A DNA stretch of 50,684 nucleotides from Candidatus Eiseniibacteriota bacterium (GCA_043810925.1 JBDRNT010000170.1:1-50684), one strand, 5' to 3'; positions 17,616 to 50,588 are shown, counted from the first letter of the stretch. Notes: generated by a model not told the origin, from the letters alone. Translations and numbers: made by a program.

Positions 17616-17632
17616 GGCTAGTCACCCATCCC

Positions 17633-19991: not shown

Positions 19992-20402
19992 ATGGCCCAA
20001 AAGAAGTCGGCCAAGTGTGTTGTGCGCCGGATTACTGTCGACGAGAAGCTCTTCGAGGATCTCATCCGCTTGGAAGTCTGTAATCTTGTCGACGGAGTGG
20101 ACCTTTTCGAAGATGCGTCAAGATTCTGGCAGGAGGAGGACGAGGACGACGACGTGCTGGTCGGTCCCGACAACTACGCGGATGCGCTGGGCATCCCCGA
20201 ATCACTCCGCACGAAGTTTCCATGGAAGGATCTCAAGGAAGGCCAGGTCTTCCTGAGCGGATCGTTCGCAATGTCGGGAGACAAGAACAAGCCTCACACC
20301 TACATTGTCAAAAACGGCGCCAACGAGTTTCTCCGCATCGACGAGATCACACGAGAGGAAATCAAGGAGCTCTATTACCAGGCGATCAAGAGGAGTAGTT
20401 GA
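19992..20402 (+). CDS. Hypothetical acidic protein (136 aa)
   Basis: AAGGAGG RBS before ATG 19992; WQEEDEDDD tract; stop abuts the next gene. Confidence 0.75.
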   Translation: MAQKKSAKCVVRRITVDEKLFEDLIRLEVCNLVDGVDLFEDASRFWQEEDEDDDVLVGPDNYADALGIPESLRTKFPWKDLKEGQVFLSGSFAMSGDKNKPHTYIVKNGANEFLRIDEITREEIKELYYQAIKRSS

Positions 20403-20404
20403 AA

Positions 20405-21481: not shown

Positions 21482-21513
21482 CGGGGTGAAGAACCGATAC
21501 GCGGCGTGAAACG

Positions 21514-22509: not shown

Positions 22510-22536
22510 CTTACCTTGGTCGCGGAGGTCTTCCGG

Positions 22537-23940: not shown

Positions 23941-24036
23941 TAAATCATATCCTTTGTGTGTGATTAAGCACTGTTCGTAAAAGGTAGCAGGAAACGCAAT
24001 ACCAGTCAAACGCATTTATCATGTGGCGGCCCTGGG

Positions 24037-29611: not shown

Positions 29612-31106
29612 CTATCTCGGTACACACAGATACGTAGGTCTGGTTCGCTTACCCGTGACCGGCCAGAATGCATCCTCATCAAGGAAGATCGGTGCATGGC
29701 AATTGTAATGACCCTCGATGTCCTCGCGTCGCCAGCTGGTGTCAAGTATGATGACGTCGAACCTGCCCTGGCTGACGGACTGCCTTATATCCGCGATAAG
29801 ATCTGCCCGGGCCTCTTCACTGCCTCGAAGCACATCATGAATGGCCATTCGATGAGCGTAGGTCTTCTTCCCGGCCATGCGGGATAAATACCCGTGATCG
29901 GGGCATAAGAACCTCACCCTGCACACGTGAGATCATATCAACGAGTTCTCGGCCTGCCAGCAAGTCCTTTGCCGTGGGGACCTGATCGACCGGGTCATAC
30001 TTGAGGATGCCGAACTGTATCAGGCAGCTCACAGTGATGAGAATCATGCCCATCTTTGCTCCGGTTGTGGGACGCCCGCCGACCCGTCGGGAGATCCGGT
30101 CAACTGCCAGACCGAATATCACTGCAACACAGGCGTAGGCAGGGAAGAGGACATTGTCGTAACCGCCCAGATGTAGTCTTGATGACAGGGCTCCACCCAG
30201 CATGCCTGCAGCGAAGAACAGATAGAATAGCGCCCTGTCACGGGATGATTGTCTGAGTCCGGCAAAAAGGTAGGATCCGCACAGGGCACAAGCTATCGGC
30301 AAGGGCAGGAACAAATCCTTAACCCAGAAGTCCAAGAACAGACTCGGGATGATCTCATGCCCCCTGGGCAGCCCGTAGATGTAGAACATGTACCATCCCT
30401 CATGAATACTATCGAGTGCGATTGAGCTTATGACCACCGTCGCAAGCGCCGTCAAGATCAAGTAGCAGGATCGCCTCCAGTTCTGGTATGCGGCATGCGC
30501 CATCAGGGGTAATGCCATGATCAAGGCCACCTGTTTTGTCAAAAAGGAAAGCCAGACCAGGATTCCGGCCAGCACATACGCCCGATTCGACCGTGAGAAC
30601 CTGATCACATAGACAGCCAGGAGAAACAGGAAAAGGAACAGGGAATCGACTCTCGCTATATCAAACCAGGCACCACTCAACCTGTATGTTGCTGCGAAGA
30701 TGGACGCGGCAAGAACGGCAGCCGAGTTATTGCCCGTCTCGCGTCGTACGATAGAGAATATCAGCGCGAAGCAACCCAGTGATGATGTGAAAGACACGAG
30801 TCTCAGAGGCACGAACCCGATACCGAGAACCCATGAGACACCAGCCGATAGATAGAAGTAAAGCGGGGTGTATATGTAAGCGACGAATTCAAGCGTGGGC
30901 TTCACGTAGAGTCGGTCCCCGGCCAGTATTCGTCTCACATGGTCTACCGAGCCTCCTTCCATCCACTCGAGCTCAAATGGATACTGTATCCGCAGGATCG
31001 CCAGGACCACATAGACACCAACGTACGATAGTGCAACACAAAGCAGTACGTAATGAGATACCCTGACCAGCCGATCCTGCCGTTCGGTTCCCATCCCCGG
31101 CTTCAC
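29612..31106 (-). pseudogene. GT-C (ArnT/PMT-like) glycosyltransferase split by a +1 frameshift at 29900-29903
   Basis: 5' ORF has ELEWMEG, IYTPLY, ARVD, TKQ; removing one C from ATG CCC C GAT CAC restores MPDHGYL and joins ORF 29612-29926 (497 aa total). Confidence 0.8.
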
Positions 31107-31317
31107 CTCCAGGAGTAGACCCTTCCTCGAGTCGAGATATTACCACACACGAATGAGCTGTTTGAAGGAGATTGGCGCGAGCCCAGGTTGATGCGTGTCC
31201 GATCGCACACGATACATGCCCCCGGGAATCCTTCCCGTCTCACAGCCGACTGCACGCCGGCCTCGACAATTGCGTGTCCTCCCCTGCGGCAGTACGCAAA
31301 TGCCTGTGTCATTCCGC

Positions 31318-31344
31318 TAATGCTGTACCGGTAGTTGCCGATAC
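31318..31344 (+). promoter_or_regulatory. Putative sigma28/FliA-type promoter of the giant-protein operon
   Basis: TAAT-N15-GCCGATAC versus consensus TAAA-N15-GCCGATAA. Confidence 0.55.
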
Positions 31345-31382
31345 TTACTAAGAATAGGGACTGTTGCGAGCGGGGGTGTATC

Positions 31383-34300
31383 TTGTGCAGTAGCGCCGTA
31401 CGCATAGCGGCAGCGGTCGTGATTCTCGTTGCTGCTCTTATCCTGTCCGCGGTACAGACTGCCGTGGCCGTGGTTTACTACGTCTCGCCTTCGGGAGACA
31501 ATCTCGACGACGGTCTCAGCCAGGGCACCGCGTGGCTTTCGGTTGATCACGGTGACGAGCTGGGCATCCTTGCCCCGGGCGACACCGTGTACATACTCCC
31601 CGGTATTTACCTGGTCAGCAACACGATCTCGCTCACATCTTCGGGTACGGGCGTGGCACCCATTGTGTACGCCGGGCAGGAAGATGCCATGCCCAGACTC
31701 GTGAACATCGATTCAGAGGATGCATCCATAGTAATGGACGGTGACCATCTGGTCCTGAGTCACATAAGTCTCACCGCCGACCCCCTTGTAACGGTGAACG
31801 GCATAGACATCAATGGTGATTCATGCACCGTTTATGGCTGTCTGATCCACGACATCCTCTACGACGGAATCGAGGTCACCGGTTCATACAACCTGATCCT
31901 GAGGAACGTAGCATATTCGTGTGGACGTCACGGTATTCAGAGTGTGGAATCCGGTGTTCACAACCGCTACTACGGCAATACCCTGTGGGATAACAACTAT
32001 GACGGCATACAGGTACTCGGCAGCGGAAGTGACAACCGGATATTCAACAACCTCGTAATTGAGAATGGGGATGACGGAATCTCCGGGCCGCCGGACAATG
32101 TGTGCGGTTATAACGATGTTTGGAACAACCACGGCATGAGTTACACGGGCGGCGTGAGCGATTCGGCAGGCGGTATCTCGGAAGATCCGGTGTTCGCGGA
32201 TGCTGCGGCTGGTGATTTCACGCTCCGGTCCGGTTCACCGGCAATCGATGCCGCTCTGGACCTTGGCTATCCGTACACCGGTGCGGCACCCGATATGGGG
32301 GCAATTGAGTACACGGCCTACGATGCGACAAGTTACTATGTTTCGCTTTCGGGCGATGATGATAACGACGGGCTGAGCCCCGGGAGCGAATGGCTCTCAA
32401 TCGATAATGGGGACCAGAAAAGTATCCTGGCGCCCGGGGATACGGTAAATATCCTGCCGGGCACTTATCTGCCCACGTCGACCGTACAACTCAAGACCGA
32501 TGGCAGGGCAGATGCGAACATAACCTACCGCAAGTTCGGCAGTGGCGACGTCGTGGTCGATATGGGCGGCGCATCAAAAGTCGCGATCCTTATTGAAGGT
32601 GATCATGTCAGGCTTGACAGCCTTGAAGTAACGAATACCGACGAGCAAGGGGTCCATGTTAAATCTGATTCATGCAGAGTGCGCGGCATGTATGTCCATC
32701 ATACGGGCAAGGCAGGTATCCGGGTTGAAGGCAAGCACAATCTATTCGTCAAAAACATCATCGCCTTCACCGCCGACGACGGCGTCAAGAATGAAGGTGG
32801 CGCAGACCAGAACACCTACCACAATAACACGGTCCATTCCAACGCGAACAAAGGCTTTGACCTCAATACCAACAATTCACGCCTCTTCAATAACATAGTT
32901 GTGGACAATGACAAGGGGATAGACGGAAATTCAGCCAATGTTTGTGGCTTCAACGACGTCTGGGGTAACACCAGCGACGACTACAATGGTGGCGTTTTCG
33001 ATTCAGCCGGGGGCATCTCCGCCGATCCCGAGTTCTTCGATCCGGTGAGTGGAGATTTCATGCTTCAATGCGGTTCTCCCGCGATCAATGCCGGACTCGA
33101 TCTGGGTGACCCGTACCACGGCGGTGCACCGGACATGGGGGCGGTCGAGACCGACCATTGCGACTCAGTTGCATACATAGTTGTTGTTCCGGACACGGCA
33201 ACCGTTTTGGAAGGTACTTCACTCCAGTATGCCGCCTACGGCTATGCCTCCGACTCGACCTTTGTCCAGGATCTGACCGACTCGGTGAGTTGGGGCATGA
33301 CCGATCCCTCGGGTACGATAACCGCCGGCGGACTCTATACGGCAGGCCATGATCTATCCCCTCCGGATTACCATGTGATCGCCAGCTATGTTGCCATGGT
33401 CGACTCCGGGGCAGTGACTGTGGCAACGGATGGTACGCTTAGCTATATTCGGGTCGAACTTGAGGACGGAAGGCAGTTCCCCGATACTACGCTTACCACA
33501 GACAATGACACCACGGTCTTCTACTGCCGCGGCTATGACTCCGGCGACAATCCCCTCGGAGACATTGTGGCCAACTGGAGCCTAATTGAGGGCGATTCAA
33601 TCGGCAAGATCCTGCCGGCGGGTGGCATGTCAACCACTCTTGAGCTTCGGGTAGCGGGTACGGCCCGCGTCGAGGCCAGGCTGGGCGGAGGTCTTGCAGA
33701 TACATCAGGTGTGATCACATGTGTTGCCGGGGAGCCGGTGACGTTGTCAGTATCGCCTGATACGGCCGTGGTCTCAGCCGACAGCACACTTGAGTTCACG
33801 GCGTCTGCAACCGACGCCGACGGCAACCCAACGGGTCCAATTGTGAGCACCGTGTGGGAGGTGCTGGGAGGCATCGGGTCCATCGACAGCACAGGCCTTT
33901 TTGCGGCAATGACAGTTGGGACGGGCAATATCGTCGGGACAAGCGCAGGTCTTAGCGATACGACCGGCGCCATCGAAGTCGTCGTGGGAGAGGTGGCGCG
34001 GATCGACGTTGCTCCCGCCACCAGGGTGCTTAACGAGGGATCATCGCAGCAGTATACTGCAAACGGCTATGATGCCGATTCCAATTTCGTTTTCGACCTG
34101 ACCGATTCTGTTGCCTGGACCACGAGCGATCCATCGGGTTCCATAACCACCGGCGGACTCTACACCGCCGGCAGTGCTCTTTCACCTCCGGATTACCATG
34201 TGATCGCAACCCATCTTGCCATGGTTGACTCCGGCCTGGTGACGGTGGTGACGGACGGATCACTGAGTCACGTTCGGGTAGAGCTTGAGGATGGAAGGCC

Positions 34301-37300
34301 GTTTCCGGACACGACGCTTACGACGGACAATGATACGACCCGGCTTTACTGTCGTGGCTATGACACGGGTGAAAATCCCCTCGGAGATCAATCGGTCACC
34401 TGGGAGGTGATCGGTGGTGATTCGATCGGAGAGGTTTCACCCATTTCCGGTACGTCGACGACGCTCACGCTCTCGAGGTCGGGTACGGGCCGTGTCAGGG
34501 TTACTCACTCAGCCACGATCAAAGACACCTCAGGTGTCTTGACTTGTGTGGCCGGAGAAGTGACGTGGATCGATCTCACCCCGGCTTCCAACATCATCAC
34601 CGAGGGATCATCACATCAGTACGCTGCAAACGGCTATGACGCCGATTCAAACTTCGTTATCGATCTAACCGATTCTGTTGCCTGGACTACTACCGATCCA
34701 TCAGGCTCTGTAACAACCGGTGGATTCTATACCGCCGGCAGTGATCTTTCACCGCCGGATTACTATGTGATCGCAACCTATGTTGCCATGGTCGACTCGG
34801 GAGTGGTGAAGGTCATCACGGATGGTTCGCTGAGATATGTCCGTGTTGAGATGGCTGACGGGACGCCTTTCCCGGATACGACACTTACGACGGATAACGA
34901 TACGACCCGGTTTTACTGCCGTGGTTATAACTCGGGTGACAATCCCCTCGGAGATCAGCCGGTCACCTGGGAGGTGATCGGTGGTGATTCGATCGGAGAG
35001 GTTTCACCTCTTACCGGGACGTCTACGACGTTTACGCTTCTGAGGTTGGGCACGGGCCGTGTCGGCGCCACTTACTCACCCACAATCAAAGATACCTCTG
35101 GTGTAATAACTTGCGGTGCCGGTGACCCGGCGGAGCTCATTGTCTCACCGGACACTGCGACCGTGTCTGCGGACAGTACCCTCCAGTTCACGTCACTCTC
35201 ACTCGATACCGACGGCAATGAGACCGACCCACAGGTGATACCTGCGTGGGAGGCATTGGGGGGAATAGGTGCCATCGACAGTTCCGGCCTCTTCAGTGCC
35301 GCCACTGTAGGGACGGGCAATATCCTCGCCGTCGGATCGGGTCTTGCCGACACCACCGGTACGATAACGGTGATTCCAGGCGAGACTGTCTGGATAGATG
35401 TTCTTCCGAGCACCCAGATCGTGATCGAAGATTCATCTTACCAGTTTACGGCCTACGGCTACGACGGCGACTCTAACCTCGTAGATGACTTCAGCGTTGA
35501 CGCTCTCTGGAGCACGACCGACCCATCGGGTTTGGTGACGGGTACCGGTCTTTATACGGCCGGCACCGATCCTTCGCCGCCTGTCTACCTTGTTAGGGCA
35601 AGTCTGGATCTGCCGCTTGGAAGTCTCCACTCTGTCCGGGATTCAAGCGAAATCACGGTGCTTACCAGCGGATCGATCAAGTATGTTCTTGTCGAAGCGT
35701 TTGACGGCACTCCTTTCCAGGATACAACCCTTACGACGGACAATGACACGACACGTCTCTACTGCCGAGGCTACGACTCCGGAGACAACCCGGTCGGGGA
35801 CCTCGCGGTTACATGGTCCCTGATTGGCGCTGACTCAATCGGCACTGTCAGTCCGGGTCCGGCCACCCACACAACGATGGAGCTGTCCCGGTTGGGAACA
35901 GGTCTGGTTGTTGGAACCTATGGTCCGGGCATGAGTGACACGACGGGCATCATAACCTGCGTTGCAGGTACACCTGCGAGTCTTGTGATCGCCCCGGATA
36001 CGGCTACCACATCCGCCGGCAGCTCGGTCCAGTTCACGACATCGACACTTGACGCCGACGGCAACCCAAGTTCATCGGTAACGATCGATGCGTGGGATGT
36101 GCTGGGTGGGATCGGCACGATTTCCGGTACCGGGCTCATGACAGCCACAACCGTGGGAATCGGTTCAGTAGCCGGTTCGGGTGAAGGACTCACCGATACA
36201 AGTGGTGCCGTCACTGTGCTTGCGGGTGAGCTCAGCCAGATTGCGATCACACCGGACTCCGCCGTGGTGACCCTCGGTGGCACGCTGGCCTTTGAGGCCG
36301 GTGGCACCGACGCTTACGGCAATGTCGCGGACGTCGGGGATCTCACCTGGGCCGTGCTCGGTGGTGTGGGTGGGATAGACGGCGCAGGCACTTTCAGCGC
36401 TCTTGCAGTTGGATCGGGGCGCATCACGGTTGAAAGCAGCGTAAACAGCATATCAGACACCAACCGGGTGGTTACCGTTCTGCCAAGCGGCCTGAAGATG
36501 CTGGTTGTCACCCCCGACACCGCAACGGTCAAGATTGCAGGCTCCGTCCAGTTCGCCGCAACAGGTTTCGATGAGAACTTCCAACCTGTCGCCGTTGGTG
36601 ATCTCACCTGGCAAGTGCTTGGGGGGATCGGGTCGATAGACCAGTCGGGAGACTTCGTGGCATCGACCACCGGGGTGGGCTACATTGCGGCCACAAGCAG
36701 CGTAGGCGGCGTGGGTGACACGACCAGTATGATTATCGTCGAGGTTCCCACGATCTCTGAAGTACCTCTCGGAAACAACTTCGCCCGTGCCGGCCAGACG
36801 CGTGTTCCGGTACTCGGCTTTAAGATCTCCAACGCTTTCGATGGACCTGAACAGCTTGATGGCATCACGCTTCGCGATGCTTCACACGGGACAGGCAGCG
36901 CCGGACAGATTCTCTCAAACATCGACTCGCTGGCGCTCTACATCGATTCGAACTCGAGTGGCGGGCTTGACCCGTCGGATGCCTTCATCGCCGGAACGGA
37001 CGCGATCTCAAGCACAGTCGATCTGTCGTTCTCTCCGGTCATGATCGGACCCGGCTCAAACCGTACGTTCTTTGTCACTGCAACGATAACCCGGTTCCCG
37101 TGTGACGGGGACTTACTCGATTTCTTTCTATTGCCTTCCACCGATGTCGACCTGGCAGGCGGCACTCCGGTCGCCGGGCCCGACACGCTCAATTCACTCG
37201 GGCTTTGCATAGTTGATGGTCTGATCGCAAACCAGCTGACCCTGATCCCGACAGGTACCGGCACACTGACATCGGAGAGCGGTCTGTCCAATGTTCTGGT

Positions 37301-40300
37301 GATCGACGTGCCCCGGAACGGTTACGCCGCGGACGTCCTTGAGATCTTCTCGGTCTTCAACACCGGGACGGCAGATACCACGGACCTCGATTCACTATCG
37401 CTTTACATGGATGACGGCAACGGTACCTGGACCGGTGGTGAGGAGGAGACCTACATTGGTGATCTGTCCTTCACGGGCAATCAGTGGGAGCTGAGCGGTC
37501 TGTCGGTGGCCCTTACTGAGCAGGTCACCCGGTTTTACCTGGGAGCGAAGCTGTCTGAGTTCGCCGGCAACGGAGCGACCCTTGCACTGGGCTTCCCGCT
37601 ACACGCACTTGAGATGTCCTCTGATAACGATGGACCGGTCGATACTGCGATAGATCCTGTAGAGACGATAGCGATTGCCTCCACCGAGACGATACTGGCA
37701 GGTGTGCTTCCGCTTGAGGCAGGGGAGTTGATACCGGGTACGACCACCGGTCCGATCACGGCCGTCGAGCTCGTCAACCGCTATTCTGAACCCGTGCATG
37801 TCGACAGTATACGGTTCACCAATGCAGGGTCTGATCCCGGCGGCGCATCACAAGCCGAGCTCGACAGCCAGATAGACGCCGTAAGTCTCTGGCTTGAAGG
37901 CGACGGTAATCATGCGACGCGCGGGCCGCTCGACAGCTTGATCGCCTCCGGTGGACTCCAGGCGGGCGAGGTTGTCTTTGCAACCGGCGGGATTTCAATT
38001 CCTCCTGCCGGTGGTGCTGTCCGCATGACGGTCGAATGCACCCTGAACAGACTGACAAGCAAGAACGCCAACCTCATTAATTTCGCCATATTGGACGGTG
38101 CGGATATTCACTTCGCCCAGCCGGTCGCGCTGTCCGGGAGTTTTCCCCTCAAGAATGAAGGTGATTTTTCCATAAATACGTTTCCGGCATCGAATGTTGC
38201 CGTTCATGCCGTCCCCGGCGGGACGATCTTCGGCGGCGAAACCGACCACCTGATATTCGACTTCGAACTGCCGCGTAACGGCTATGCCGCTGACAATCTG
38301 CGCAGCTTGAGGATAGTGAACACGGGATCCTCAAACGAACAGGACGCCCTGGAAAGTGTTAAGCTCTGGGCCGCTTCGGGCGGTCTCGGTTCACCACAAA
38401 GCGCCATTCTGCTCGGCGAGTTTGAACCGGAAGATGGTGGGTGGCTTATCTCGGACCTGGCGGTGCCGCTTGCTGAGGAAGGCAACCGTCTGTTTGTCAC
38501 CGTTGATGTTGCGACGGATGATTTCGGGGGAGGCACGCTTCGCTTTGAGATCCCCATTCATGGGGCTCTGTATGCTTCGGGAACCAATGGTCCCGACGAT
38601 GCGCCTGTTGGTGACCTGCAATCACATCTGCTTTTTCCTGCGAACCGGATAACTGTAATACCAATTCCGGGTGAGGCATCGGTGGTCCGCCCGGGAGCTG
38701 TGCGGACGGCCGTTCTTACCTTTGCTCTTTACAACGGCTATGCGCACCAGACACACGTTCTTGAAGCAATCAGGCTGTCAAACGGTTCAAGGTCGGTTTC
38801 AACCAGCGCTTTTGCAGACCATGAACTGGGCCAGGTGTCCCTCTACCATGACGAGAATACCAACCGGACTTTTGACGATGATATGCTTATAGCGTCCGGG
38901 TACTTCACAGACGGGAGTCTCAGCCTCAGCGGTCTTAACGTATCGCTTCCTTCCGAGTCGTTATCGTATTTCTTCGTGGCTGCGAACCTGCCGCTTGACG
39001 TGATCGACTCGGACACGCTTGTTGTGACAATCGACGAGCACTCAGATTTCACATTTGCTCAGAGTGTCAATCTCAATGGCGACCTTCCTCTGTCAAGAGG
39101 CGGTATTCTCACAATAGACGGATCTGTTGCCGGCCAGTACGGCCTGGTTCCGTGCACCGTGCGAACCCTGTCACCGGGTGATACGGCGGTCACGCTCTTT
39201 GCCCTGCGACCTGCCTCTAACGGCAACCAGGTCGATGTTCTCGAGTCCATGAGGATGGGCAACGATGCAGATGCGGATACGAGTGACTTCACCTTGCTCA
39301 AGCTCTGGCGTGACTCCAACGGGGACGAGACTTATCAAGCAACCGACTCACTCCTGGGACAGGCGACATACGTTGGAGGAGACTGGCTTTTTGAGGGGAT
39401 CGGGCTTGAGATCGCGGGTGAACCTCCCGTCCTCTTCGTAACGGGAGATGTGACCCTGCGAGCCACGCCGAATTCGTCGCTGCGGCCCGTGTTACCCCTG
39501 AATGGGTGCGGGTACGCCTCTGCCAATGACGGCCCGCTTGATGTACCGCTGGGGAGCGGGTACGCATTTGTGATCTCGACCTCAGGCCTCAAACTGACGT
39601 ATGAGTCGCTCAGCCCGAGGTATTCGGTTGGTCAGCCTGTTGATCTGAATGTTCATGCGACCAACATCCTCCCAACTACTATGTACGATGTCTCCTGTGA
39701 TATAACCGGGATTGGCGAGCCTGGAATAGTCAGTCTGGACAGCAGCTCCGTTGCGCGAGGAGTGTTGTCTCCGGGTGGGACGGCGGACTTTACGGCGAGC
39801 TATACTGCTCTTGAAGCAGGTACGGTGCACTGGCGGATCCAGGCTTTCTCGTCGAACCCGGCCGACTCATCCGCACCTGTTCAGACCGAGCCTGTTGTGA
39901 TCCAGACCGCACCGTCCGGCGCCGTGGTGGAGATGATAAGCTCGATTCCCACCGCCGTTACCCGGGGCCAGAGACAGGTTTTCCCGCTGAGTATCAAGTA
40001 TAGACACTCCGATCCGTCACCGCTTGCGGCCTCGATAAGGCTGGACAGTCTCCGGGTCGGGATCATGGATGAGACGGGAATCCCGCTCTCGGCCGGCGCG
40101 ATCTTCTCCAGAATGGTACTTGCTACGGGTTACACAAACCTTACGATCCTTGAGACGTTGCCGGATGCATCAACCGTGCTGCTCGGGTTCAGCCGGCCGA
40201 CGGTTGTGTCTCCGGGAGACGAACAGGTCCTTTCACTCCAGGTGGACATAGACAGTCTCGCCGGAGCCAACTCATTTGCCCTGACCATTAAGAGTGCAGC

Positions 40301-42221: not shown

Positions 42222-44233
42222 AACGCAGACTACTGCTTGCCATCTGTCTGGTTTCTGCCACCGCCTTATCCGCGGTAGCCGGTGACGGCGGCGCGCAGTC
42301 GCCCTTCAGCATGGGTGCAGGCGCCCGGGACCTCTCCCTGGCCGGCTCCGCGCTGGCTGAGGCCGATCCATTCGCGGCGCCATACTGGAATCCGTCGGTG
42401 CTTGCACGGACGGACCGGCTGTCGCTGGGTGCGTTTCACAGCCGTCTTTATGAGTCGCAGACTGTTTACCAGTATGTTGGACTGGCCGTTCCCACCATGG
42501 ACCTGGGTGGTTTCGGTTGCGGGATCTTCAGGCTGGGAGTCGGCGGGATCGAGAAGCGTGACGGGTTCAACTACCTCATGGGCGAGATCGAAGACAGCCG
42601 GCTTGCCGTCTATGTGGGCTACGGCCGCTCGGTATCGGGCTATGATGTCGGTCTTGCCGTCAACCTTGATCATCATTCCCTGGATGACTACAGTGCAACA
42701 TCTTCGCCCGGTCTCAGCGCATCGGTAGGGCGACACTTCGAGCCCGGTCCGGACTGGCTGCCTCGTGTCACTGCCGCCGTAAACGGACGAAACCTCATCA
42801 GACCGCGGATGAAGCTCGTGGATGCAAACATTACCCAGCCCTACGGCATAGAGGGTGGAATATCACTGACGGTTCTGCCGAAACCTTCGTGGGATCACAG
42901 TATAACAGCCTCGGCGGCAGTCGCTAAGGCCGACCTCGTTGACCCCCATATTGCAATCGGCCTTGAGTACAGTGTCCAGGACCGGCTATGGGTACGGGGT
43001 GGGGTCAGGAACGGCAAAGCCTCTTTCGGAGCAGGGCTGATGTACAGATCGATCCATCTTGATTATGCAATGGTCGATCGTGATCTGGGCAGTCTCCATA
43101 TGTTCAGCATAAGCGCCGACCTCGGCAGGCCAATGAGCGAGAAGCGGCAGATCCGCGCCGAGGCGCGGGAATCCGAGTTCAGCGCACTCATAAGCAAGCG
43201 GTTGGATGATCGGAACCGGGAGACAATCTCGAGTCTGGTCGCGCACGGTCAGGAACTGATAAGCAAGGATGACTTGAAACAGGCGGGCATCATTCTGGAC
43301 CGTGCCATTTTCCTCGCATCAGGCAGCGGTCTTGATACCATGCGGATCTACCGGACTGCCAGGGACGCCAGAGCACAGGTCGAGAAGGCGCTGCTCCAGA
43401 GTGCGTTCGCCGCCGACATGGACTCGGCGCGGGTCAGGATGGACACGGGAGACTATCTGGGCGCCAGGTACTACGCCGACCTTGCACTGGCGAAGATTCC
43501 CGACTCGGACGAAGCCGCAGGGATCCTTGAGAGTGCGGGCACCGCCATACACCAGAGCATAAGCAAGGATCAGATTCTTGAATCCCAGCTTCGCCTGGCG
43601 GACTCGCTTATGAGCTATGGCAGGTACGAGGAAGCATTGATCACCGTGCGCGCACTGAATACGATATCCGAAGATGACGAGAGGGTGAAGACCGCGACCA
43701 GAAAGGCGGAGTTCGGCCACTGGTGCGAAATCGCCGAGACGGCCTTCTCCCGGGCGGAGTACGGGAAAGCCAATGCCGCCCTGGATTCGGCCCTGGATGT
43801 CTTCCCCAAGCATCCCTGGTGCCTGAGTCTCCGTGGGCAGATCCAGCAGGTGCTGAGTCGTCCCGTGGAAAGTGTTACTGCGCCTGAGGTTGATGTGGAC
43901 ATACCGCTCGGAGATGACCTCCGCAAAGAGGTTGATGCGGACTACAGGACCGGGCAGCGATTGTTCGAAAAGGGTAACCTGGCCGGAGCCGTGGCACGAT
44001 GGGAGAAGGTGGAACGGCTTGCCCCGGGCTACATGTCGGTCCGGACGTATCTGGTTGATGCATACAAGTTCCTCGGTGTTGAGCTCTATACCAAGAGCCG
44101 GCTGGCCGACGCCGTGGAGGTCTGGAAGAAAGCTGCCAGGCTGGACCCCGCCAGCAGCGAGATTGCCGGTTACATCAAGCGTACGGAGAGTGAAATAGCA
44201 ACTTTGGAGGAGCTGTCGTATGAGTCCAGGTAG
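42218..44233 (+). CDS. PorV/PorQ-like outer-membrane beta-barrel fused to a C-terminal TPR-like helical region
   Basis: Signal peptide; GAGARDLSLAG...YWNPSVLA; barrel end GLEY...RGG...FGAG...LDYA...LGSLHMFS; then helical repeats (WKKAARLDP); ATGA overlap with the giant gene. Confidence 0.85.
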   Translation: MKRRLLLAICLVSATALSAVAGDGGAQSPFSMGAGARDLSLAGSALAEADPFAAPYWNPSVLARTDRLSLGAFHSRLYESQTVYQYVGLAVPTMDLGGFGCGIFRLGVGGIEKRDGFNYLMGEIEDSRLAVYVGYGRSVSGYDVGLAVNLDHHSLDDYSATSSPGLSASVGRHFEPGPDWLPRVTAAVNGRNLIRPRMKLVDANITQPYGIEGGISLTVLPKPSWDHSITASAAVAKADLVDPHIAIGLEYSVQDRLWVRGGVRNGKASFGAGLMYRSIHLDYAMVDRDLGSLHMFSISADLGRPMSEKRQIRAEARESEFSALISKRLDDRNRETISSLVAHGQELISKDDLKQAGIILDRAIFLASGSGLDTMRIYRTARDARAQVEKALLQSAFAADMDSARVRMDTGDYLGARYYADLALAKIPDSDEAAGILESAGTAIHQSISKDQILESQLRLADSLMSYGRYEEALITVRALNTISEDDERVKTATRKAEFGHWCEIAETAFSRAEYGKANAALDSALDVFPKHPWCLSLRGQIQQVLSRPVESVTAPEVDVDIPLGDDLRKEVDADYRTGQRLFEKGNLAGAVARWEKVERLAPGYMSVRTYLVDAYKFLGVELYTKSRLADAVEVWKKAARLDPASSEIAGYIKRTESEIATLEELSYESR

Positions 44234-45824
44234 CAGAACCATGCTGGCGGAGGACTGGCCCGAAGCATCCCAGTTTAAGAAGTCCATTCGTTTGGAGTTT
44301 GCGCTCTATGTCTCCGGGATCATGATCGCGATGATGCTGGTGATGGGGTACATCATATCCAGCCGGTATGTAAAGACCGTTACGCAGAGCGTCGTGGACA
44401 AGCTGCTGGTCCAGGCTCGCTCGTACTCCGAGCCGGCAGGAAAGCTGATCATCGCCGGCGACGCACCGGATGCCCTTTTACTCAATAACATATGCAAGAA
44501 GCTCGCAGACGGCGATCCTGACATCTACTGGGCCGGTATCACGGACGATCGCGATACATTCATAGCTCATACGGATATCAAGCAGGTGATCAACTCGGCG
44601 AAAATGCGGCCGGTCAGATCGGGTCAGTTCCAGAAAATGCTCAAACCGAAAGAAGGATTCAGCCTTGGGCGCGACACGGTTTTCATTGCCGTCCCTATAG
44701 CGGAAAACAATGTCGCACTGGGGAACCTCTCGGTAGCGGCTTCAGCGGCCCCCGTCAGGAAGGCGAGGACCACATCAATCGTGACTGTCGCCACAATCAC
44801 TCTTATCATGGCCGGGATCGGCATTCCCGTCACCATCGCGGTGTTACGCCGGAGACTTCGTCCGATCAGCATCATTACGGATCACCTGAAGACCGTCGAT
44901 CTTCAGAACATCTCGCTGGATATTCCTGTTACGAGTAAGAACGAATTCGGGTTTCTCGCGGAGACCATCAGGGTGATGGGCTCAAAGCTGGGCGCGGCCC
45001 AGAAGGAGCTGATTGAGAAGGAGAGAATGACGCGGGAGCTTGAGATAGCACGTGAGATTCAAGCCAATATCCTGCCGAAGGCCTACCCGACGGGTGTCGA
45101 GTTCCAATTGGCGGGTACCTACCGCAGTGCGAAGGAGGTCGGAGGCGACTACTACGATTTCGTCGAGTTCGATGACGATCGCCTTGGAATCCTGATCGCC
45201 GATGTTTCAGGGAAGTCCCTGCCCGGAATGCTTGTGATGTTGATAACACGCGATATTGTCAAGCGACTGGCCAGATCGGTTCGGGAACCCGCCGAGCTCC
45301 TGACCGCGGTGAACGCAGATCTTCTGGGGAACATCAAGCAGGGCATGTTCGTAACCATGTTCTACGGGGTCCTGGACAAGAAGACGGGGGAGTTCAAGTT
45401 CGCATCGGCGGGCCACAACCAGCTGATAGTAATCAAAGGGGACACAGGGAAGAGTGAACTGATCAAGACGCGCGGTTTCCCGTTGGGCATGATGGATTCG
45501 GACACGTACAAGAAGCGCATCGAAAGCGGCAAGATCATGCTCTCGACGAACGACTGGCTTATACAGTACACGGACGGAGTTAATGAAGCGCAGAACATCG
45601 ACGGGGAGGAGTTTGGGCTCGATCGGCTCATGCAGATCATTCAGGAGCGCAGAGACAAATCGCCAGGGGATCTCGTCAGCGAAATGCTCAGGGAACACGA
45701 CCTGTTTGTGGGCGATGCGGCTCAGTATGACGATATAACGTTGTTAGCTATTAAATGGGTGGAGCAAACTGCCGATACAAGAATTGGTGTTTTAGGGGAG
45801 ACAGAACATGTCGGTGACAACTGA
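44220..45824 (+). CDS. Membrane HAMP + PP2C/SpoIIE Ser phosphatase (RsbU-like)
   Basis: Two TMs around a periplasmic domain, HAMP (NEFGFLA), ELEIAREIQ, EVGGDYYD, ADVSGK, SAGH, YTDGVNEA, DDIT. Confidence 0.95.
   Translation: MSPGSRTMLAEDWPEASQFKKSIRLEFALYVSGIMIAMMLVMGYIISSRYVKTVTQSVVDKLLVQARSYSEPAGKLIIAGDAPDALLLNNICKKLADGDPDIYWAGITDDRDTFIAHTDIKQVINSAKMRPVRSGQFQKMLKPKEGFSLGRDTVFIAVPIAENNVALGNLSVAASAAPVRKARTTSIVTVATITLIMAGIGIPVTIAVLRRRLRPISIITDHLKTVDLQNISLDIPVTSKNEFGFLAETIRVMGSKLGAAQKELIEKERMTRELEIAREIQANILPKAYPTGVEFQLAGTYRSAKEVGGDYYDFVEFDDDRLGILIADVSGKSLPGMLVMLITRDIVKRLARSVREPAELLTAVNADLLGNIKQGMFVTMFYGVLDKKTGEFKFASAGHNQLIVIKGDTGKSELIKTRGFPLGMMDSDTYKKRIESGKIMLSTNDWLIQYTDGVNEAQNIDGEEFGLDRLMQIIQERRDKSPGDLVSEMLREHDLFVGDAAQYDDITLLAIKWVEQTADTRIGVLGETEHVGDN
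45752..45778 (+). promoter_or_regulatory. Internal sigma28/FliA-type promoter upstream of the STAS-kinase and STAS genes
   Basis: TAAA-N15-GCCGATAC ending 29 nt before ATG 45808 and upstream of its GGGGAG RBS. Confidence 0.65.
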
Positions 45825-46605
45825 AAAAGGTAGGAGGATTCTGGTACCCGGTGATCTGGACGAGGGGGCTCTGGATGGCTTCTTCACTGAGCTGGATATT
45901 ACGCTCGAGGAGACGCCGAAAGAGATCTCTCTGGACTGCTCGCTGCTGGACCATGCGACATCTGGTCACATAAACGTACTGTGGGATGCCCAGACCAGAT
46001 GTGAACACGCCGGTATCCCGATGCGACTGCTGTCTGTGAGGTTCGGTCTTGAGCGAGTCCTCAGGATCCTTGATCTGTTTGATCTGTTCACAGTTGAGCA
46101 GGTAACTACAGCCCCGGGCGACGATGCCACCGGCGGGAGGATCGGGGCCTTCATGCCCCCGGCCCTCGAGCTGGAGCTTCGCTCAACGATGGAAGACGTC
46201 AGTGAGGCCGTGGTCAGGCTCCACGACTACCTGGTGCGGCTGGGTCTTCCGGGCAGTTATGCCTTTGACATGGAGACGGTGTTTTACGAGGTTGCCACGA
46301 ATGTTCGCCGTCACGGAGGACTCGGGGAGAATGAGCTTATGTCGATCAGGGTGATACCGGGTGAGGAGCGCGTCAGCCTGCGTTTCGCGGATCCCGGGCA
46401 GCCCTTTGATCCCACCGGCAGGAAGACCATGTTCGATCCGCGCCAGGCCATCAGGCTGAAGCAAACCAACGGCATAGGATTGACAATGATAAAACGGCTC
46501 GTGGATACGATTTCATATGAACGTGTGGGAAACCGGTTGAACGTATTGACCCTGGAAAAGAAGATTAGTCCGGGGTGGAGGTGGCGAGATGATATCTCGG
46601 AATGA
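45808..46605 (+). CDS. STAS domain fused to anti-sigma Ser kinase (RsbW/SpoIIAB-like HATPase)
   Basis: STAS (LDCSLLDHATSGH...RVLRILDL); EVATNVRRHG, DPGQPFDP, GIGLTMIKRLVD, NVLTLEK. Confidence 0.9.
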   Translation: MSVTTEKGRRILVPGDLDEGALDGFFTELDITLEETPKEISLDCSLLDHATSGHINVLWDAQTRCEHAGIPMRLLSVRFGLERVLRILDLFDLFTVEQVTTAPGDDATGGRIGAFMPPALELELRSTMEDVSEAVVRLHDYLVRLGLPGSYAFDMETVFYEVATNVRRHGGLGENELMSIRVIPGEERVSLRFADPGQPFDPTGRKTMFDPRQAIRLKQTNGIGLTMIKRLVDTISYERVGNRLNVLTLEKKISPGWRWRDDISE

Positions 46606-46933
46606 CATCGATCATGAGTCTGTTGTCATTAATCCCGGTAAGGTCATGGACAACAGCAATGCGCATGAGGTTACGAAGTTCATAACTGCCCTACAGAAAG
46701 AGGGCTGCAAAAATGTCGTAATGGACATGAGCCAGCTCGAGTTCCTTTCATCCGCAGGTGTTGGATCGATCCTCGGCACCGTCGGCAGGGCAAGGGAGAT
46801 GGGTGGAGACATAATCCTGTGTAACCTCTCGAAGAAGGTGTTGCATATCCTGGAAGTCCTCGATCTTTGCGGCTACTTGACTATTAGGGAAAACGAGGAA
46901 GCGGCAAAAGAGGTATGTTCCGCCAGGGAATAG
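46589..46933 (+). CDS. STAS anti-sigma-factor antagonist (RsbV/SpoIIAA-like)
   Basis: VVMDMSQLEFLSSAGVG phospho-Ser motif, GGDIILCN..KVLHILEVL. Confidence 0.93.
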   Translation: MISRNDIDHESVVINPGKVMDNSNAHEVTKFITALQKEGCKNVVMDMSQLEFLSSAGVGSILGTVGRAREMGGDIILCNLSKKVLHILEVLDLCGYLTIRENEEAAKEVCSARE

Positions 46934-46936
46934 TCT

Positions 46937-48586
46937 ATGGACCGAGACTGCACACAGCAGGTAGTCGCCTCCCCGGGATCGGACAGCTGTGGGGAAAGGC
47001 AGATCCTTGCTCTGGACGCGCTTTCGAAGCTCACCAGGCAATTCTGCGACAAGCCTGACTTTGAGCAGTTGATCAGTCTTATCTTGATGACCATGTGCGG
47101 TCAATTCTCAGTGGCCGATTCATTCGCCTTGCTGCGCAAACCCGGCTGGCAGATCTGGAACAATTCATTTTTCGCGACGGGGAAGCTCACGGGAAATATC
47201 CGGCTGGGGTCGCTGGTGCTGACTCCCGACGACCGGGAGCGGTTTGCGGGTGAGGAAACCGTTTGCAGAGTAGCCCGGCTTGCATCACAGGGCGAATCGG
47301 ACAGCATAGTCTCGCTTCTTAGCGAGTCCGGTGTCAGCGTTGTCTGTCCGCTGGTTCACGGTGACGCATTCTTCGGCATAGTAGGTCTCGGGGAAAGGGT
47401 GACCGGGAAGGGCTATGGTGAGGACGATCTGAGTCTGCTGGGCACCATCATAAGCACGATCACTCCTCTTGTGGCCAACTCCTACTTGTTCTGGGAGATT
47501 GCCGGCTTGAACGGTTGGTACCTGGACATACTGAACAGCGTGACGCAGGGTGTCTTCGTGTTTGACAGGGACTACAAGCTCCAGAAGATCAATACGGCCG
47601 GGATGGATATTCTCAAGACATTTCTCCAGCGAACTTCCGACCAGCAATCGTTTGTCAACAGCCCGGTTGACACGGTTTTTCCGGAATGGGTATTCGGCGA
47701 GTTAGCCGGTCAGGTGGTCCAGTCAAGAGGCGCAGTCAAGCCGACAACCGCAAACAGGGTGTTCGCCAGGGCCAAAGGGACCGAGCGCATCTACAACGTT
47801 AGTATCACCCGGACAGTCGAGAACGGCGGCGCCAAGACTGCGCTCATCATGACTCTTGACGATGTAACCGTTCAGAAAGAAAATGAACAGCGACTCTTCG
47901 ATCTCCAGAAACTTGCAGACAAAGGTTTGATGGCCTCATCCATATCCCACGAGCTCAACAACTTCCTGACCCTGATTCTCGGCGGTGTCGAGCTTACCCA
48001 GATGGCGCTGGCTGACGGGGAGTGCGTGAAGGCTGAGACCATGCTCGACAGGATCCGGGGCAATATCGTCAACATGGAGCGCTTCACCGCAGGGCTGACC
48101 GATTACACCCGGCTTGATTCCAAGCGGCAGCGTGGGGACCTCAATACCGTGATAGATGACGTACTCTGTTTCCTCTCGGTCCAATCACGTTTCAAGCGGG
48201 TTACTATCACTTCGGAGCTCGACGTCGAATTGCCCGAGTTCGATATGGACACCGACCAGATCGCCCAGGTGTTGATGAACCTGCTCAACAACGCGGCTGA
48301 TGCGATCAAGGAAGCGGGCCGGAAGGACGGGATGATAAGCATAAGCACAGCACACGGAGAAGACGACATAACCCTTCTCATCAGTGACAATGGTGCCGGC
48401 ATGCCTCCCGAGGTCAAAGAGAAGCTCTTCGCGACGCATTTCACAACCAAGGAACATGGACACGGCTACGGCCTGGTTACGTGCGCGACAATCATAGAGA
48501 GTCACGGCGGGACCGTCACGGTTGACTCCGATGTTGGCAGGGGGACCACCTTCACCATCCGCTTCCAGACCGCAACGAATCGGTAA
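46937..48586 (+). CDS. Cytoplasmic GAF/PAS sensor histidine kinase
   Basis: GAF-like (GIVGLGER...DLSLL), PAS-like (GVFVFD...IN), SHELNN, NLLNNAADA, DNGAGM, FTTK, GHGYGL, GRGTTF. Confidence 0.93.
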   Translation: MDRDCTQQVVASPGSDSCGERQILALDALSKLTRQFCDKPDFEQLISLILMTMCGQFSVADSFALLRKPGWQIWNNSFFATGKLTGNIRLGSLVLTPDDRERFAGEETVCRVARLASQGESDSIVSLLSESGVSVVCPLVHGDAFFGIVGLGERVTGKGYGEDDLSLLGTIISTITPLVANSYLFWEIAGLNGWYLDILNSVTQGVFVFDRDYKLQKINTAGMDILKTFLQRTSDQQSFVNSPVDTVFPEWVFGELAGQVVQSRGAVKPTTANRVFARAKGTERIYNVSITRTVENGGAKTALIMTLDDVTVQKENEQRLFDLQKLADKGLMASSISHELNNFLTLILGGVELTQMALADGECVKAETMLDRIRGNIVNMERFTAGLTDYTRLDSKRQRGDLNTVIDDVLCFLSVQSRFKRVTITSELDVELPEFDMDTDQIAQVLMNLLNNAADAIKEAGRKDGMISISTAHGEDDITLLISDNGAGMPPEVKEKLFATHFTTKEHGHGYGLVTCATIIESHGGTVTVDSDVGRGTTFTIRFQTATNR

Positions 48587-48701
48587 TCTCCGACCGAAGT
48601 CTCAGTCAGTTCCATCTCTTGAACAGCGCGGTGCGTCTACCTGTTCCGGGCAGGCCGAGTCTCCGACTCGCCGTGACGGCACCAGAGTCCAACGAATCTC
48701 C

Positions 48702-48730
48702 TTGATCGTCGCAGTTATGTATGGTAAACT
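48702..48730 (+). promoter_or_regulatory. Putative sigma70 promoter
   Basis: TTGATC-N17-TAAACT with extended -10 TG. Confidence 0.55.
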
Positions 48731-48797
48731 GATCGGTGGAGTGTGATGTTTCTGCTGTGATTGATTCCTTGCTCGGAGGTCCGGGGAGTGCAGGGGA

Positions 48798-50588
48798 ATG
48801 CCCATGCGACTGTCCGCCCGTATGCGGGTGATACTCACATTCCTTGCGTTGCTGTCCATCTGCTCTTTAGCATCGGAGTGCCACGCAGCGATCGCCGATG
48901 TAAGAGCTCTTCTCATCGGTAGCCATGTCCGGGGTCCCGACAACTGGATTACCCAGGAGAGCCTCAGGCTCGAAAACCTGCTTACGTTCAACGGCATCCC
49001 GTTTGAATTCTTTGATGTGGAAGACGATAGCCTCGATCAGTCCGACCTTGATCAGTATGACGGTGTAATACTCGAGGGCAGTTCTATGCGCTTCTGTGCT
49101 ACCGAAGCCGAGCGCAGCCTGCTTGCCCAGAACATGGAAGCCGGCGGCATCACCGTCTTGCTCACGCTGATCAACGGGAAGTACACGGATCTTAACGGTA
49201 CACTCTATGACGCAATAGACGTATGGGTGAATGGTCTCGAGAACTTAGAGTTCAACGTCCGTCTCCGTGAAGGGGCGGTTAAGATCTACAATTACTGGAC
49301 CGACGACGGCTTCGTGGTTGCAGGTGGATCCGATTGCAGACACATTGGCATATGCGTCAACTCTCTTAGCACCTGGGCACGCGGAGACCCTATTTTCGGT
49401 GACTACCGTGTATACGGGGTCGATTTTGCTCTTTCACGATGGATGGAGAACACCTTTGGGGTCGACGCCAGAGTGACACTGCCGGTGATCTCTGTGAGAC
49501 TCGATGACACTCAGACCAGTACGTGCGAACGGCACCAGGAAGTGATCGACTTCATCGACGCAAATAAACACAGGATAAGAGCATCAGGTTTTCTGGTAAC
49601 AGATGCGAGCGCCTACAACTGCTCGGACAGCACGTTACAGAACGACGAGCAGATCATAAGCCAGTGGGGCAGCATGTCACTTCATGGTAAGGTTCACACG
49701 CCCGTCGGTGCTGACGGCGAAAACCGTGACTATCAGACACAGTATGACGATATGAACGAGGCGGTGGCCTTCCTTCAGCAACACTTTTCACGGTACAAAC
49801 CCATGAAAGCATCTCCAATGAACAGCTGGAATGAAGCTACACTGCATGCGATGTACGATAATGGCATATACTACCACTCTGCGTGTCTGTGGACTAGTGA
49901 CGATTACAAAGCACTGTATAAGAGCCTGTTCGACGTGGGAAACGAGCTTGATCGAGAAAGGGTGTTCGCGAGGGGTGCGTCGGGCCTCTTTAGGTATTAT
50001 CCGTTGGTTCATTCCGATCAAACGGGTGAGGTCCGGATATACAGCGTGGATTGGGGTCCCGTTCTCAGTGCTTTACACACCCCGGCTCAAGCACTTGATG
50101 TCGTGAGAAGCTACGGTCTCGATTGGTGGACCCCCGTGCTGATAGGTGCACACTACCGTCATGACGAACCTCATGGTGCGGACCTTAATCCAGAGGGCTG
50201 GATCGCGCTAATGGGGGCACTGATGGATTCTGTAGACCATGACAGTTATTACTGGCGCAGGTGGGTTGACAGTTATGACTTCGCAAGGAATGTCGAGCGG
50301 TTCGACAAGGCCCTTAGCATCAACGCTGTTTCGGTCGACGGTGACATCATTACATACGAGATCACTGCTGATGAGCCCTTACGCTTTATGACACTCAGAG
50401 CGGAGAAAACCGGGTACAAAGTGCAATCTGTGATGATCGACGGCACCGAACACTGCTACTTCGGTGATGCCTATGTTCATTTGCCCGAGATTTACGGGAA
50501 CACTGTAATAGAGGTGTCACTGACTTGTCTGGAGAATGGCCGAGAGTCAAGCCCTTTCTTAGTGGGAATTCCCGGCGGCCTTCCCTGA
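48798..50588 (+). CDS. Secreted polysaccharide-deacetylase-like (NodB/DUF2334-type) protein, probably 3'-truncated by an IS
   Basis: Signal peptide; VRLDDTQ and SLHGKVH metal-binding-like motifs, PMNSW; last ~15 codons read through IS-like sequence. Confidence 0.65.
   Translation: MPMRLSARMRVILTFLALLSICSLASECHAAIADVRALLIGSHVRGPDNWITQESLRLENLLTFNGIPFEFFDVEDDSLDQSDLDQYDGVILEGSSMRFCATEAERSLLAQNMEAGGITVLLTLINGKYTDLNGTLYDAIDVWVNGLENLEFNVRLREGAVKIYNYWTDDGFVVAGGSDCRHIGICVNSLSTWARGDPIFGDYRVYGVDFALSRWMENTFGVDARVTLPVISVRLDDTQTSTCERHQEVIDFIDANKHRIRASGFLVTDASAYNCSDSTLQNDEQIISQWGSMSLHGKVHTPVGADGENRDYQTQYDDMNEAVAFLQQHFSRYKPMKASPMNSWNEATLHAMYDNGIYYHSACLWTSDDYKALYKSLFDVGNELDRERVFARGASGLFRYYPLVHSDQTGEVRIYSVDWGPVLSALHTPAQALDVVRSYGLDWWTPVLIGAHYRHDEPHGADLNPEGWIALMGALMDSVDHDSYYWRRWVDSYDFARNVERFDKALSINAVSVDGDIITYEITADEPLRFMTLRAEKTGYKVQSVMIDGTEHCYFGDAYVHLPEIYGNTVIEVSLTCLENGRESSPFLVGIPGGLP

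Follow-up and report, generated by a model that had tools for sequence, protein, structure and literature searches.

A conserved six-gene cassette that may join a giant surface protein and its PorV-like barrel to a partner switch in Zixibacteria-like and other FCB-group bacteria

Few systems are known in which a bacterium senses the state of a surface protein across two membranes. In FecA–FecR–FecI, an outer-membrane barrel informs a partner in the inner membrane of an event at the surface; BcsC and PgaA (and also PelB) carry a periplasmic tetratricopeptide repeat (TPR) scaffold fused to a barrel, with the repeats N-terminal and a polysaccharide as the substrate in BcsC and PgaA; and a chlamydial RsbU, reportedly described by Soules in 2020, is said to have a periplasmic sensor. 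For the secretion system of type IX (T9SS), the sole published hint of such sensing is, to our knowledge, PorA–PorXY–SigP. PorA of Porphyromonas gingivalis, a protein with a C-terminal sorting domain (CTD), interacts with PorV and, by the published proposal, hands a surface signal on to PorXY–SigP (PMC7712824), and PorV itself binds cargo CTDs on its extracellular loops (PMC10994853). PG1035, another T9SS cargo, has a dedicated barrel, PorP, whose periplasmic side is bound by PorE, a TPR protein (PMC9143113; the domain composition of PorE, including the TPR, is given in PMC12773672). On the cytoplasmic side, a membrane-bound RsbU with a periplasmic sensor occurs in Chlamydia (PMC11619594), and the partner switches BtrU/V/W of Bordetella (type III secretion) and SypE/SypA of Vibrio fischeri (Syp polysaccharide) lie inside the locus that they serve and have outputs other than sigma factors (PMC8256260). 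Here we analyse a 50,684-nucleotide stretch of DNA from Candidatus Eiseniibacteriota bacterium (GCA_043810925.1, JBDRNT010000170.1:1-50684; hereafter, the window), in which six genes (g1 to g6) bring related parts together. Our best explanation, to which we assign a probability of roughly 0.4, is a conserved six-gene cassette of Zixibacteria-like bacteria and other members of the Fibrobacteres–Chlorobi–Bacteroidetes (FCB) group, in which a T9SS-type giant protein and its own PorV-like barrel are joined to a partner switch that lacks a sigma factor. The module is real, conserved and undescribed; the relay mechanism is plausible and unproven.

Literature searches, supplements aside, returned no published description of the cassette and no paper that links type IX secretion to Zixibacteria or to the STAS domain, or that links PorV or the T9SS to partner-switching terms; the papers containing both PorV and RsbU were staphylococcal and unrelated. 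A preliminary description of this DNA had gone further in saying that no described system like it was known to its author, which is too strong given the publication of PorA–PorV–PorXY–SigP (PMC7712824).

The six open reading frames (ORFs) lie on the plus strand, tightly packed as one block: g1 (31335–42221; 3628 amino acids (aa), with a TTG start) encodes a giant, putatively secreted surface protein, g2 (42218–44233; 671 aa) a PorV-like barrel with a TPR arm, g3 (44220–45824; 534 aa) an inner-membrane sensor phosphatase, g4 (45808–46605; 265 aa) a fusion of a STAS domain to an RsbW-type kinase, g5 (46589–46933; 114 aa) a single-domain STAS protein and g6 (46937–48586; 549 aa) a GAF-PAS-HisKA-HATPase histidine kinase. 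At the g1/g2 boundary the sequence itself shows an ATGA overlap; from the ORF coordinates, g2/g3 overlap by 14 bp, g3/g4 by 17 bp and g4/g5 by 17 bp, and a gap of 3 bp separates g5 from g6. These junctions bear out the preliminary description, whose block start at 31318 is wrong for g1, the frame of which opens at the TTG at 31335. Promoter and terminator scans at approximately 31000–31450 and 48400–48900 yielded nothing exceeding shuffled sequences. With 40000–48600 of the window as the query, a search of sequencing runs returned none, RNA data included.

Duplication of the block within its own genome, together with the conservation of its order in dozens of loci, indicates that the six genes form one unit, as had been proposed, and they very probably act together. 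The second full cassette is on contig C62, and its g1 to g6 are 52, 49, 62, 48, 61 and 52% identical, respectively, to the genes of the window; with only 48–62% identity, an artefact of the metagenome-assembled genome or a strain duplicate was ruled out. Before the C62 cassette stands a gene for an S8 subtilase that has Big_7/Kre9 domains and a Por_Secre_tail (L009, 103–2952), and after it one whose product weakly matches S41 peptidases (L010, 586–1851); neither is kept at the window's cassette. Across the phylum, a g2 orthologue occurs in 9 of 18 genomes (split by contig ends in 2 of the 9), and the six loci available from relatives all carry g1 to g6 in order; with C62 included, g1, g3, g4, g5 and g6 are each found around g2 in 7 of 7 loci. 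A metagenome scan with the g2 alignment recovered 35 loci, with g1 present in 23/23, g3 in 31/31, g4 in 24/24, g5 in 23/23 and g6 in 20/22 (missing in L045 and L055). A locus entered these neighbour counts when it had 300 nt or more of sequence past the preceding gene, and the expected neighbour had to be on the same strand; the metagenome loci are partly near-duplicates (as are L041 and L042) and all are related, such that the counts are not independent trials. A third exception, L067 (528–821), has a g3 orthologue that ends after 97 aa and is followed by opposite-strand genes, consistent with either a decayed cassette or a chimeric contig. Nothing conserved was found downstream of g6 or upstream of g1 in the related loci, and the genes after g6 are convergent in most of them. 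At the protein level, the g2 family comprises 143 proteins at E ≤ 1e-5, the best 120 of which are nearly all approximately 670 aa long and 41–88% identical, with Zixibacteria or the FCB group as the named sources.

The family is also not confined to the phylum. Among 1.84 billion representatives, a profile search returned 443 proteins at E ≤ 1e-30, including a second tier of full-length proteins (approximately 630–700 aa) at 220–350 bits, some of them labelled Candidatus Krumholzibacteria and 'PorV/PorQ family protein', and 15 of the 183 out-of-phylum genomes in a 201-genome sample matched g2 at E ≤ 1e-20. Neighbours were scanned at ten out-of-phylum loci with an open frame of at least 557 aa: a membrane HAMP-SpoIIE sensor directly follows the long PorV-TPR gene in seven, and a protein of 2337–3534 aa directly precedes the barrel gene in five (these five giants include three with a FlgD_ig tail below cut-off and one with a CHU_C tail). 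The genes on the output side vary. L102 has the whole six-gene plan with a plain RsbW; in L103 an RsbW-type kinase domain is fused to the sensor's C terminus and the last gene is a GAF-type histidine kinase; in L104–L108 the RsbW-type kinase is fused to the sensor's N terminus; in L105 and L106 the gene after the STAS gene encodes a GGDEF protein; and L105 and L107 have sensors that end in a helix-turn-helix (HTH) tail. In L110 (11709–16274), the PorV-TPR gene encodes 610 aa, and behind it come genes for a 444-aa FlgD_ig-tailed Kelch protein and then an sCache-HAMP-adenylate/guanylate cyclase, an arrangement whose input side is as in the window cassette and whose output is different. L109 (389–8680) and L111 (461–8516) place PorV-like/TPR genes in unrelated contexts, one with ExbB, ExbD, a TonB_C protein and a 1144-aa TPR/YfiO-like protein, and the other with a FliG-like protein with a TPR tail. 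Within the small phylum of L102, the barrel-TPR gene is present in 9 of 10 genomes, and six of eight further loci with room carry the full six-gene plan, the exceptions being L122 and L129. The gene order, for which the preliminary description had called for a synteny search and whose confinement to this genome it had named as grounds for abandoning its model, is not unique: a second copy, relatives, metagenomes and other phyla carry the cassette.

We next consider the surface end of the cassette. The product of g1 begins with a hydrophobic signal segment (aa 22–40, from a hydrophobicity scan), followed by a right-handed β-helix (approximately aa 200–530; Pfam Beta_helix, 2.4e-19), Ig-like Big_2/Big_1 repeats, a long stretch without family matches and a C-terminal sorting tail (Pfam). 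This predicted T9SS-type sorting domain (aa 3546–3612; 41970–42170, plus strand) is a FlgD_ig-like β-sandwich that aligns to two NCBIfam models, PorU and T9SSA_dep_M6i, in their C-terminal CTD portions. Positions ~1000–1080 of the PorU model are matched by approximately 45 ORF ends in the genome, the g1 tail among them. With the last 928 aa as the only input, FlgD_ig reaches 28.7 bits (cut-off, 27 bits); on the full-length protein it reaches 25.4 bits. At E 0.01, g1 matched neither Por_Secre_tail nor TIGR04183, and neither g1 nor g2 matched the PorP/SprF family or CHU_C/type B in Pfam/NCBIfam. The C-terminal ~2000 aa of g1 are 40–52% identical in relatives. A phmmer search of g1 against the PDB gave one weak FN3 match only, and a protein-atlas search with aa 1601–3540 gave sub-threshold leads only (0.82 and 0.80), to FlgD_ig-tailed proteins labelled Krumholzibacteriota.

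Elsewhere, the genome encodes SprA (541.8 bits) and PorU (526.6 bits), the latter adjoining a canonical PorV. PorV_fam matches number 20 in all, g2 included, with the 10 above cut-off all at other loci; together with the approximately 45 CTD-type ORF ends, these represent a very large repertoire of carriers and cargo for a 3.85-Mb genome. In this 91.7%-complete genome, GldM (TIGR03517, PF12081) and GldL (TIGR03513) had no match at E 0.001–0.01, in a search whose controls were silent for TIGR03517 and TIGR03513 and which did not extend to GldK and GldN; this result could reflect a very divergent motor, a location in the missing 8% of the genome or a motor-less sorting system. From its sequence features, g1 appears to be a T9SS-type cargo, with a reservation concerning the motor. 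The earlier assignment of a surface cargo with a sorting tail stands in part: the tail type is common to approximately 45 other ORFs of a genome that has SprA, PorU and PorV, and its FlgD_ig score falls below cut-off on the whole protein.

Directly downstream, g2 consists of a signal peptide and a PorV-like (FadL-superfamily) outer-membrane β-barrel (aa 1–305; 42218–43132, plus strand) and a C-terminal helical/TPR arm of 365 aa (aa 306–671; 43133–44233, plus strand). The match to NF033709 (PorV_fam; E 3.6e-16, 59.7 bits) covers model positions 9–325 of 326. An AlphaFold2 (AF2) model built from 20 homologues (predicted local distance difference test score (pLDDT) 85) has strands at residues 68–302 and is all-helical at 306–669. 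Foldseek placed it closest to 8gl6_F (E 3e-10, TM-score 0.65) and 6h3i_F (E 2.5e-8, TM-score 0.61), with FadL and TodX next; in both top matches the chain is PorV of the Flavobacterium johnsoniae translocon, as confirmed from the chain name. The model and these matches identify a FadL-like outer-membrane barrel with a PorV fold. The arm starts with a 44-residue helix and continues through helical hairpins and a disordered linker (548–565) to a last TPR module (566–669). Averaged over pairs from 19 cassettes, identity is 59.8% in this C-terminal module, against 51.4% in the barrel and 40.4% in the middle helices. Outer-membrane barrels have their termini on the periplasmic side and the last position of the PorV model aligns at g2 residue 301, from which we infer that the arm is periplasmic.

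On the inner-membrane side, g3 has two strong hydrophobic segments, taken as transmembrane helices (TM1, 28–46; TM2, 190–208), that bracket a periplasmic PDC/sCache domain (47–189) and are followed by HAMP (209–257) and a PP2C/SpoIIE domain (318–513) with invariant acidic residues; Pfam matched HAMP and SpoIIE, the latter at 5.7e-46 (157 bits). The AF2 model of the periplasmic part (pLDDT 76.9) has a PDC/sCache fold, closest by Foldseek to the extracellular domain of WalK/YycG and then to the sensor domains of DcuS, DctB and CitA. In a search with this domain, all 94 of 94 matches were in SpoIIE proteins of approximately 532 aa from the same lineages, and many of them lie on contigs equal in length to those of g2 matches. 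The product of g4 is a STAS domain (aa 13–97) fused to an RsbW/SpoIIAB-type serine kinase (HATPase_c_2, aa 126–250; 60.4 bits; Pfam); it has no hydrophobic segment and is cytoplasmic, and its orthologues (n = 22) keep the N, G1 and G2 boxes plus an A-T-S motif in the STAS domain. The product of g5 is a STAS protein of the anti-sigma-antagonist type (TIGR00377, 64.6 bits against a 53.45-bit cut-off), the phospho-acceptor motif of which, L-S54-S55-A-G, is kept in 27 orthologues. Together, g3 to g5 make up an RsbU/RsbV/RsbW-type set of PP2C phosphatase, STAS substrate with a conserved Ser, and GHKL Ser kinase with N/G1/G2 boxes. The last gene, g6, encodes a soluble histidine kinase with Pfam PAS-HisKA-HATPase domains, a GAF-like N terminus (GAF is matched in orthologues) and no strong transmembrane segment. 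It has no receiver domain here; four metagenome loci (L054, L057, L059 and L071) encode a hybrid form that ends in a receiver, two of them with an extra PAS domain as well.

In outline, these results agree with the preliminary description. Its outer-membrane barrel with a TPR tail is supported by the PorV fold (AF2/Foldseek) and by TPR families in Pfam; its inner-membrane phosphatase with a periplasmic domain and HAMP, by the two transmembrane segments, the PDC/sCache model and the HAMP-SpoIIE architecture; its anti-anti-sigma STAS protein, g5, by TIGR00377 above cut-off and the conserved phospho-Ser motif; and its cytoplasmic histidine kinase, g6, by the PAS-HisKA-HATPase domains and the lack of a strong transmembrane segment. 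Its anti-sigma kinase has to be redrawn, as g4 is no plain kinase of this type and is a STAS-HATPase_c_2 fusion in Pfam.

How these parts might work can be proposed by analogy, with confidence falling from the export and anchoring of g1 by g2 through arm topology, switch chemistry and cue to output. The g1 protein would be exported with the help of the SprA/PorU/PorV machinery, and g2 would next hold or shuttle it at the surface, in the way that SprB is held by SprF and PG1035 by PorP; by this analogy, g2 is probably a dedicated carrier or anchor of g1. The 365-aa arm of g2 would hang in the periplasm, where the WalK-like PDC domain of g3 would read a cue and pass it through HAMP to the PP2C domain. 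This phosphatase would then dephosphorylate Ser54 of g5, and the kinase half of g4 would re-phosphorylate it. The cue may be the state of the g1–g2 complex, read via the arm, and the output may be a partner of unphosphorylated g5 or of g4, most simply the co-conserved kinase g6 and not a sigma factor; a GGDEF enzyme or an HTH tail occupies this place in other phyla.

The step on which this proposal turns, a physical coupling of arm and sensor, is in our estimate a real possibility that falls somewhat short of even odds. Across the 19 cassettes, the conservation of the PP2C domain (59.8%) is roughly matched by that of the arm's C-terminal module (59.8%) and of the periplasmic domain of g3 (55.2%). 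This conservation, the confinement of the sensor domain to the cassette and the adjacency of PorV-TPR gene and sensor through a change of output (one locus) favour coupling on the periplasmic side. The same genes could instead be co-regulated and not physically wired, with g1 and g2 forming a cargo/anchor pair and g3 to g6 sensing an unrelated small-molecule or envelope cue and controlling the expression or secretion of that pair, much as Btr controls type III secretion and SypE/SypA the Syp polysaccharide; the TPR arm would then be a periplasmic chaperone or docking scaffold, like PorE/SprE, for the 3600-aa cargo, the translocon or peptidoglycan. We consider this alternative possible and would stop short of calling it probable. 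It accords with the PDC/sCache fold of the g3 sensor domain and its matches to the ligand-binding domains of DcuS, DctB and CitA, with the occurrence of giant-protein and PorV-TPR pairs that have no switch, with the published PorP–PorE–cargo complex (PMC9143113) and the presence of SprE in the extended translocon (PMC10994853), and with partner switches that sit inside loci they control and have non-sigma outputs (PMC8256260). It does less well in accounting for a periplasmic domain found only in the cassette (94/94 matches), for a sensor domain as conserved as the catalytic domain, which would be unusual for a free-standing ligand sensor, and for the adjacency of PorV-TPR gene and HAMP sensor that survives the change of output domain in one locus.

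Several observations weigh against a cassette in which carrier and switch are joined. The cassette is not universal, as 9 of the 18 genomes in the phylum have no g2 orthologue, four of them being 96–99% complete, and 3 of the 10 out-of-phylum PorV-TPR genes stand in other contexts (ExbBD/TonB, FliG-like and cyclase). In L122 and L129, the giant protein and the PorV-TPR protein alone are followed by a convergent gene, with no switch. That this pair occurs alone identifies it as the core, and its isolation in two loci implies that the arm has a role without a sensor encoded in cis; the sensor with periplasmic domain and HAMP, along with the STAS switch, is added to the core pair in most cases. 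The genomes of L122 and L129 also hold a full cassette, and a sensor encoded in trans is possible there. Scores for g2 (59.7 bits; 60.5 in the genome search) lie below NCBI's 90-bit cut-off for PorV_fam, and a full T9SS is not demonstrated, the motor being 'not found with these models', which does not show its absence. Small molecules are the usual ligands of PDC/sCache domains, in keeping with a sensor independent of the arm. In a mirror-tree analysis of 12 regions of g2 to g6 from the 19 cassettes, all pairwise-distance correlations were 0.52–0.93, and the correlation of arm with sensor domain (r = 0.85) was not above those of other pairs; shared phylogeny swamps any signal of coupling. A complex prediction with the g2 arm (aa 305–671, 20 rows) and g3 (aa 47–187, 21 rows) scored 0.00 with controls not run, which is evidence neither way. 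The contact of arm and sensor and the outside-in direction are, at present, pure inference, and contact between g1 and g2 is proposed by analogy.

A cassette that joins carrier and switch could also be read on a larger scale, as one member of a new class of cell-surface signalling in the FCB group, in which a T9SS cargo receptor sits within its own PorV-like barrel, the barrel's TPR arm crosses the periplasm to touch the PDC/sCache domain of a HAMP sensor, and lineages exchange one cytoplasmic output for another (in the window, PP2C with a histidine kinase and a STAS switch that has no sigma factor; in others, kinase–phosphatase fusions, GGDEF, HTH tails or a cyclase). We regard this generalization as rather unlikely on present evidence.

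With regard to output, the preliminary description had proposed that cargo engagement or contact with a surface or polysaccharide is relayed through the barrel-TPR to g3 and releases a sigma factor; spelled out, dephosphorylated g5 would capture g4 and free a sigma factor encoded elsewhere. The RsbU, RsbW and RsbV motifs of g3, g4 and g5 are those that such a model calls for, and the four further sigma-70-family matches elsewhere in the genome also count in its favour. No sigma factor gene was found in the window cassette, the 42 related loci or the out-of-phylum variants, nor any sigma/anti-sigma target in or adjoining the cassettes examined, and no SigB/F/G equivalog in the genome exceeded its cut-off (the best scored 131 bits against a 234-bit cut-off). 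The proposal is further weakened by the STAS domain that g4 itself carries and by the GGDEF enzymes or HTH tails at the output position in other phyla. Nor did any of the six proteins match a TonB-dependent transducer, FecR-type anti-sigma or extracytoplasmic function (ECF) sigma family in Pfam/NCBIfam. We therefore regard a sigma factor as a very unlikely output, and the release model built on it as correspondingly improbable.

The direction of signalling can be questioned in a similar way. LapD–LapG–LapA provides a precedent for inside-out control of a giant adhesin, and in a comparable scheme the states of g6 and of g4/g5 would act through HAMP on the periplasmic domain of g3, which would grip or release the g2 arm and thereby control the retention, exposure or release of g1. 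The cassette does hold two cytoplasmic sensors (GAF-PAS of g6 and STAS of g4), HAMP lies between membrane and enzyme in g3, and the arm and sensor domain are both highly conserved, all of which would suit such a scheme. The PP2C domain, however, is an enzyme output that receives the signal in known partner switches; nothing marks g3 as a target of g4, g5 or g6; and the cassette has no protease or release factor. An inside-out LapD-like mechanism is in our judgement highly improbable.

The window holds further genes around the cassette. A second PMT_2 gene (29835–31106) stands head to head with g1 and has no neighbour counterpart in relatives, and g7 (48798–50588, plus strand), downstream, is a 596-aa ORF with an N-terminal hydrophobic segment and no Pfam/NCBIfam family. 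Neither g7, this upstream PMT_2 gene nor a beta-propeller gene could be retained as a conserved flank, having no counterpart in the related loci at E 1e-10. On the minus strand, 4451–24015 is a region of glycan/envelope biosynthesis that includes a DegT aminotransferase, a hexapeptide transferase, a GFO oxidoreductase, a 1063-aa PMT_2 protein, GT4, GT2, PAP2, an epimerase and a B12-radical SAM enzyme. Also on the minus strand, 2753–4180 encodes a 475-aa protein whose sole family is a FlgD_ig tail (38.3 bits), likely another CTD cargo.

Together, these results suggest that the module probably links a surface structure to cell signalling. It is a compact and strongly conserved candidate in which each compartment is represented by one gene, its outer- and inner-membrane members each have a conserved periplasmic domain suited in size to expression and binding assays, and its partner switch without a sigma factor is tied to a secretion substrate. 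It also gives a first lead on what a signature operon does in uncultured Zixibacteria-like lineages.

Set beside the systems with which we began, the cassette resembles each in part. The likeness to FecA–FecR–FecI is a functional analogy only, as g2 has no TonB box and the cassette no FecR-type anti-sigma and no ECF sigma. With RsbU–RsbV–RsbW and SpoIIE–SpoIIAA–SpoIIAB it shares a PP2C phosphatase, a STAS substrate with its Ser and a GHKL kinase, but it has no sigma factor, carries a second STAS domain on its kinase, includes a histidine kinase as a conserved sixth member and is tied to secretion genes. The Btr and Syp switches serve other secretion or export systems and have no outer-membrane partner or cargo-linked periplasmic sensor domain. 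PorA–PorXY–SigP differs in relying on a two-component system with an ECF sigma, in its small cargo, in having no dedicated barrel-TPR protein and in that its genes do not form one operon. With PorV, g2 (aa 27–305) shares the same FadL-like barrel fold, and its PorV_fam match spans the whole model; unlike PorV, g2 scores under the family cut-off and is one of 20 PorV-like proteins in a genome whose canonical PorV adjoins PorU elsewhere, and PorV lacks a TPR arm, whereas g2 has one of 365 aa (probably periplasmic) and is encoded beside one specific giant cargo. In SprB–SprF and PG1035–PorP–PorE, as in the cassette, a very large surface protein is encoded beside an anchoring barrel. Those pairs, as published, have PorP/SprF barrels, cargo with a type B CTD and no signalling genes, whereas the window cassette combines a PorV fold, a TPR fused to the barrel and a FlgD_ig-like tail on g1, with a CHU_C type B tail in one out-of-phylum giant only.

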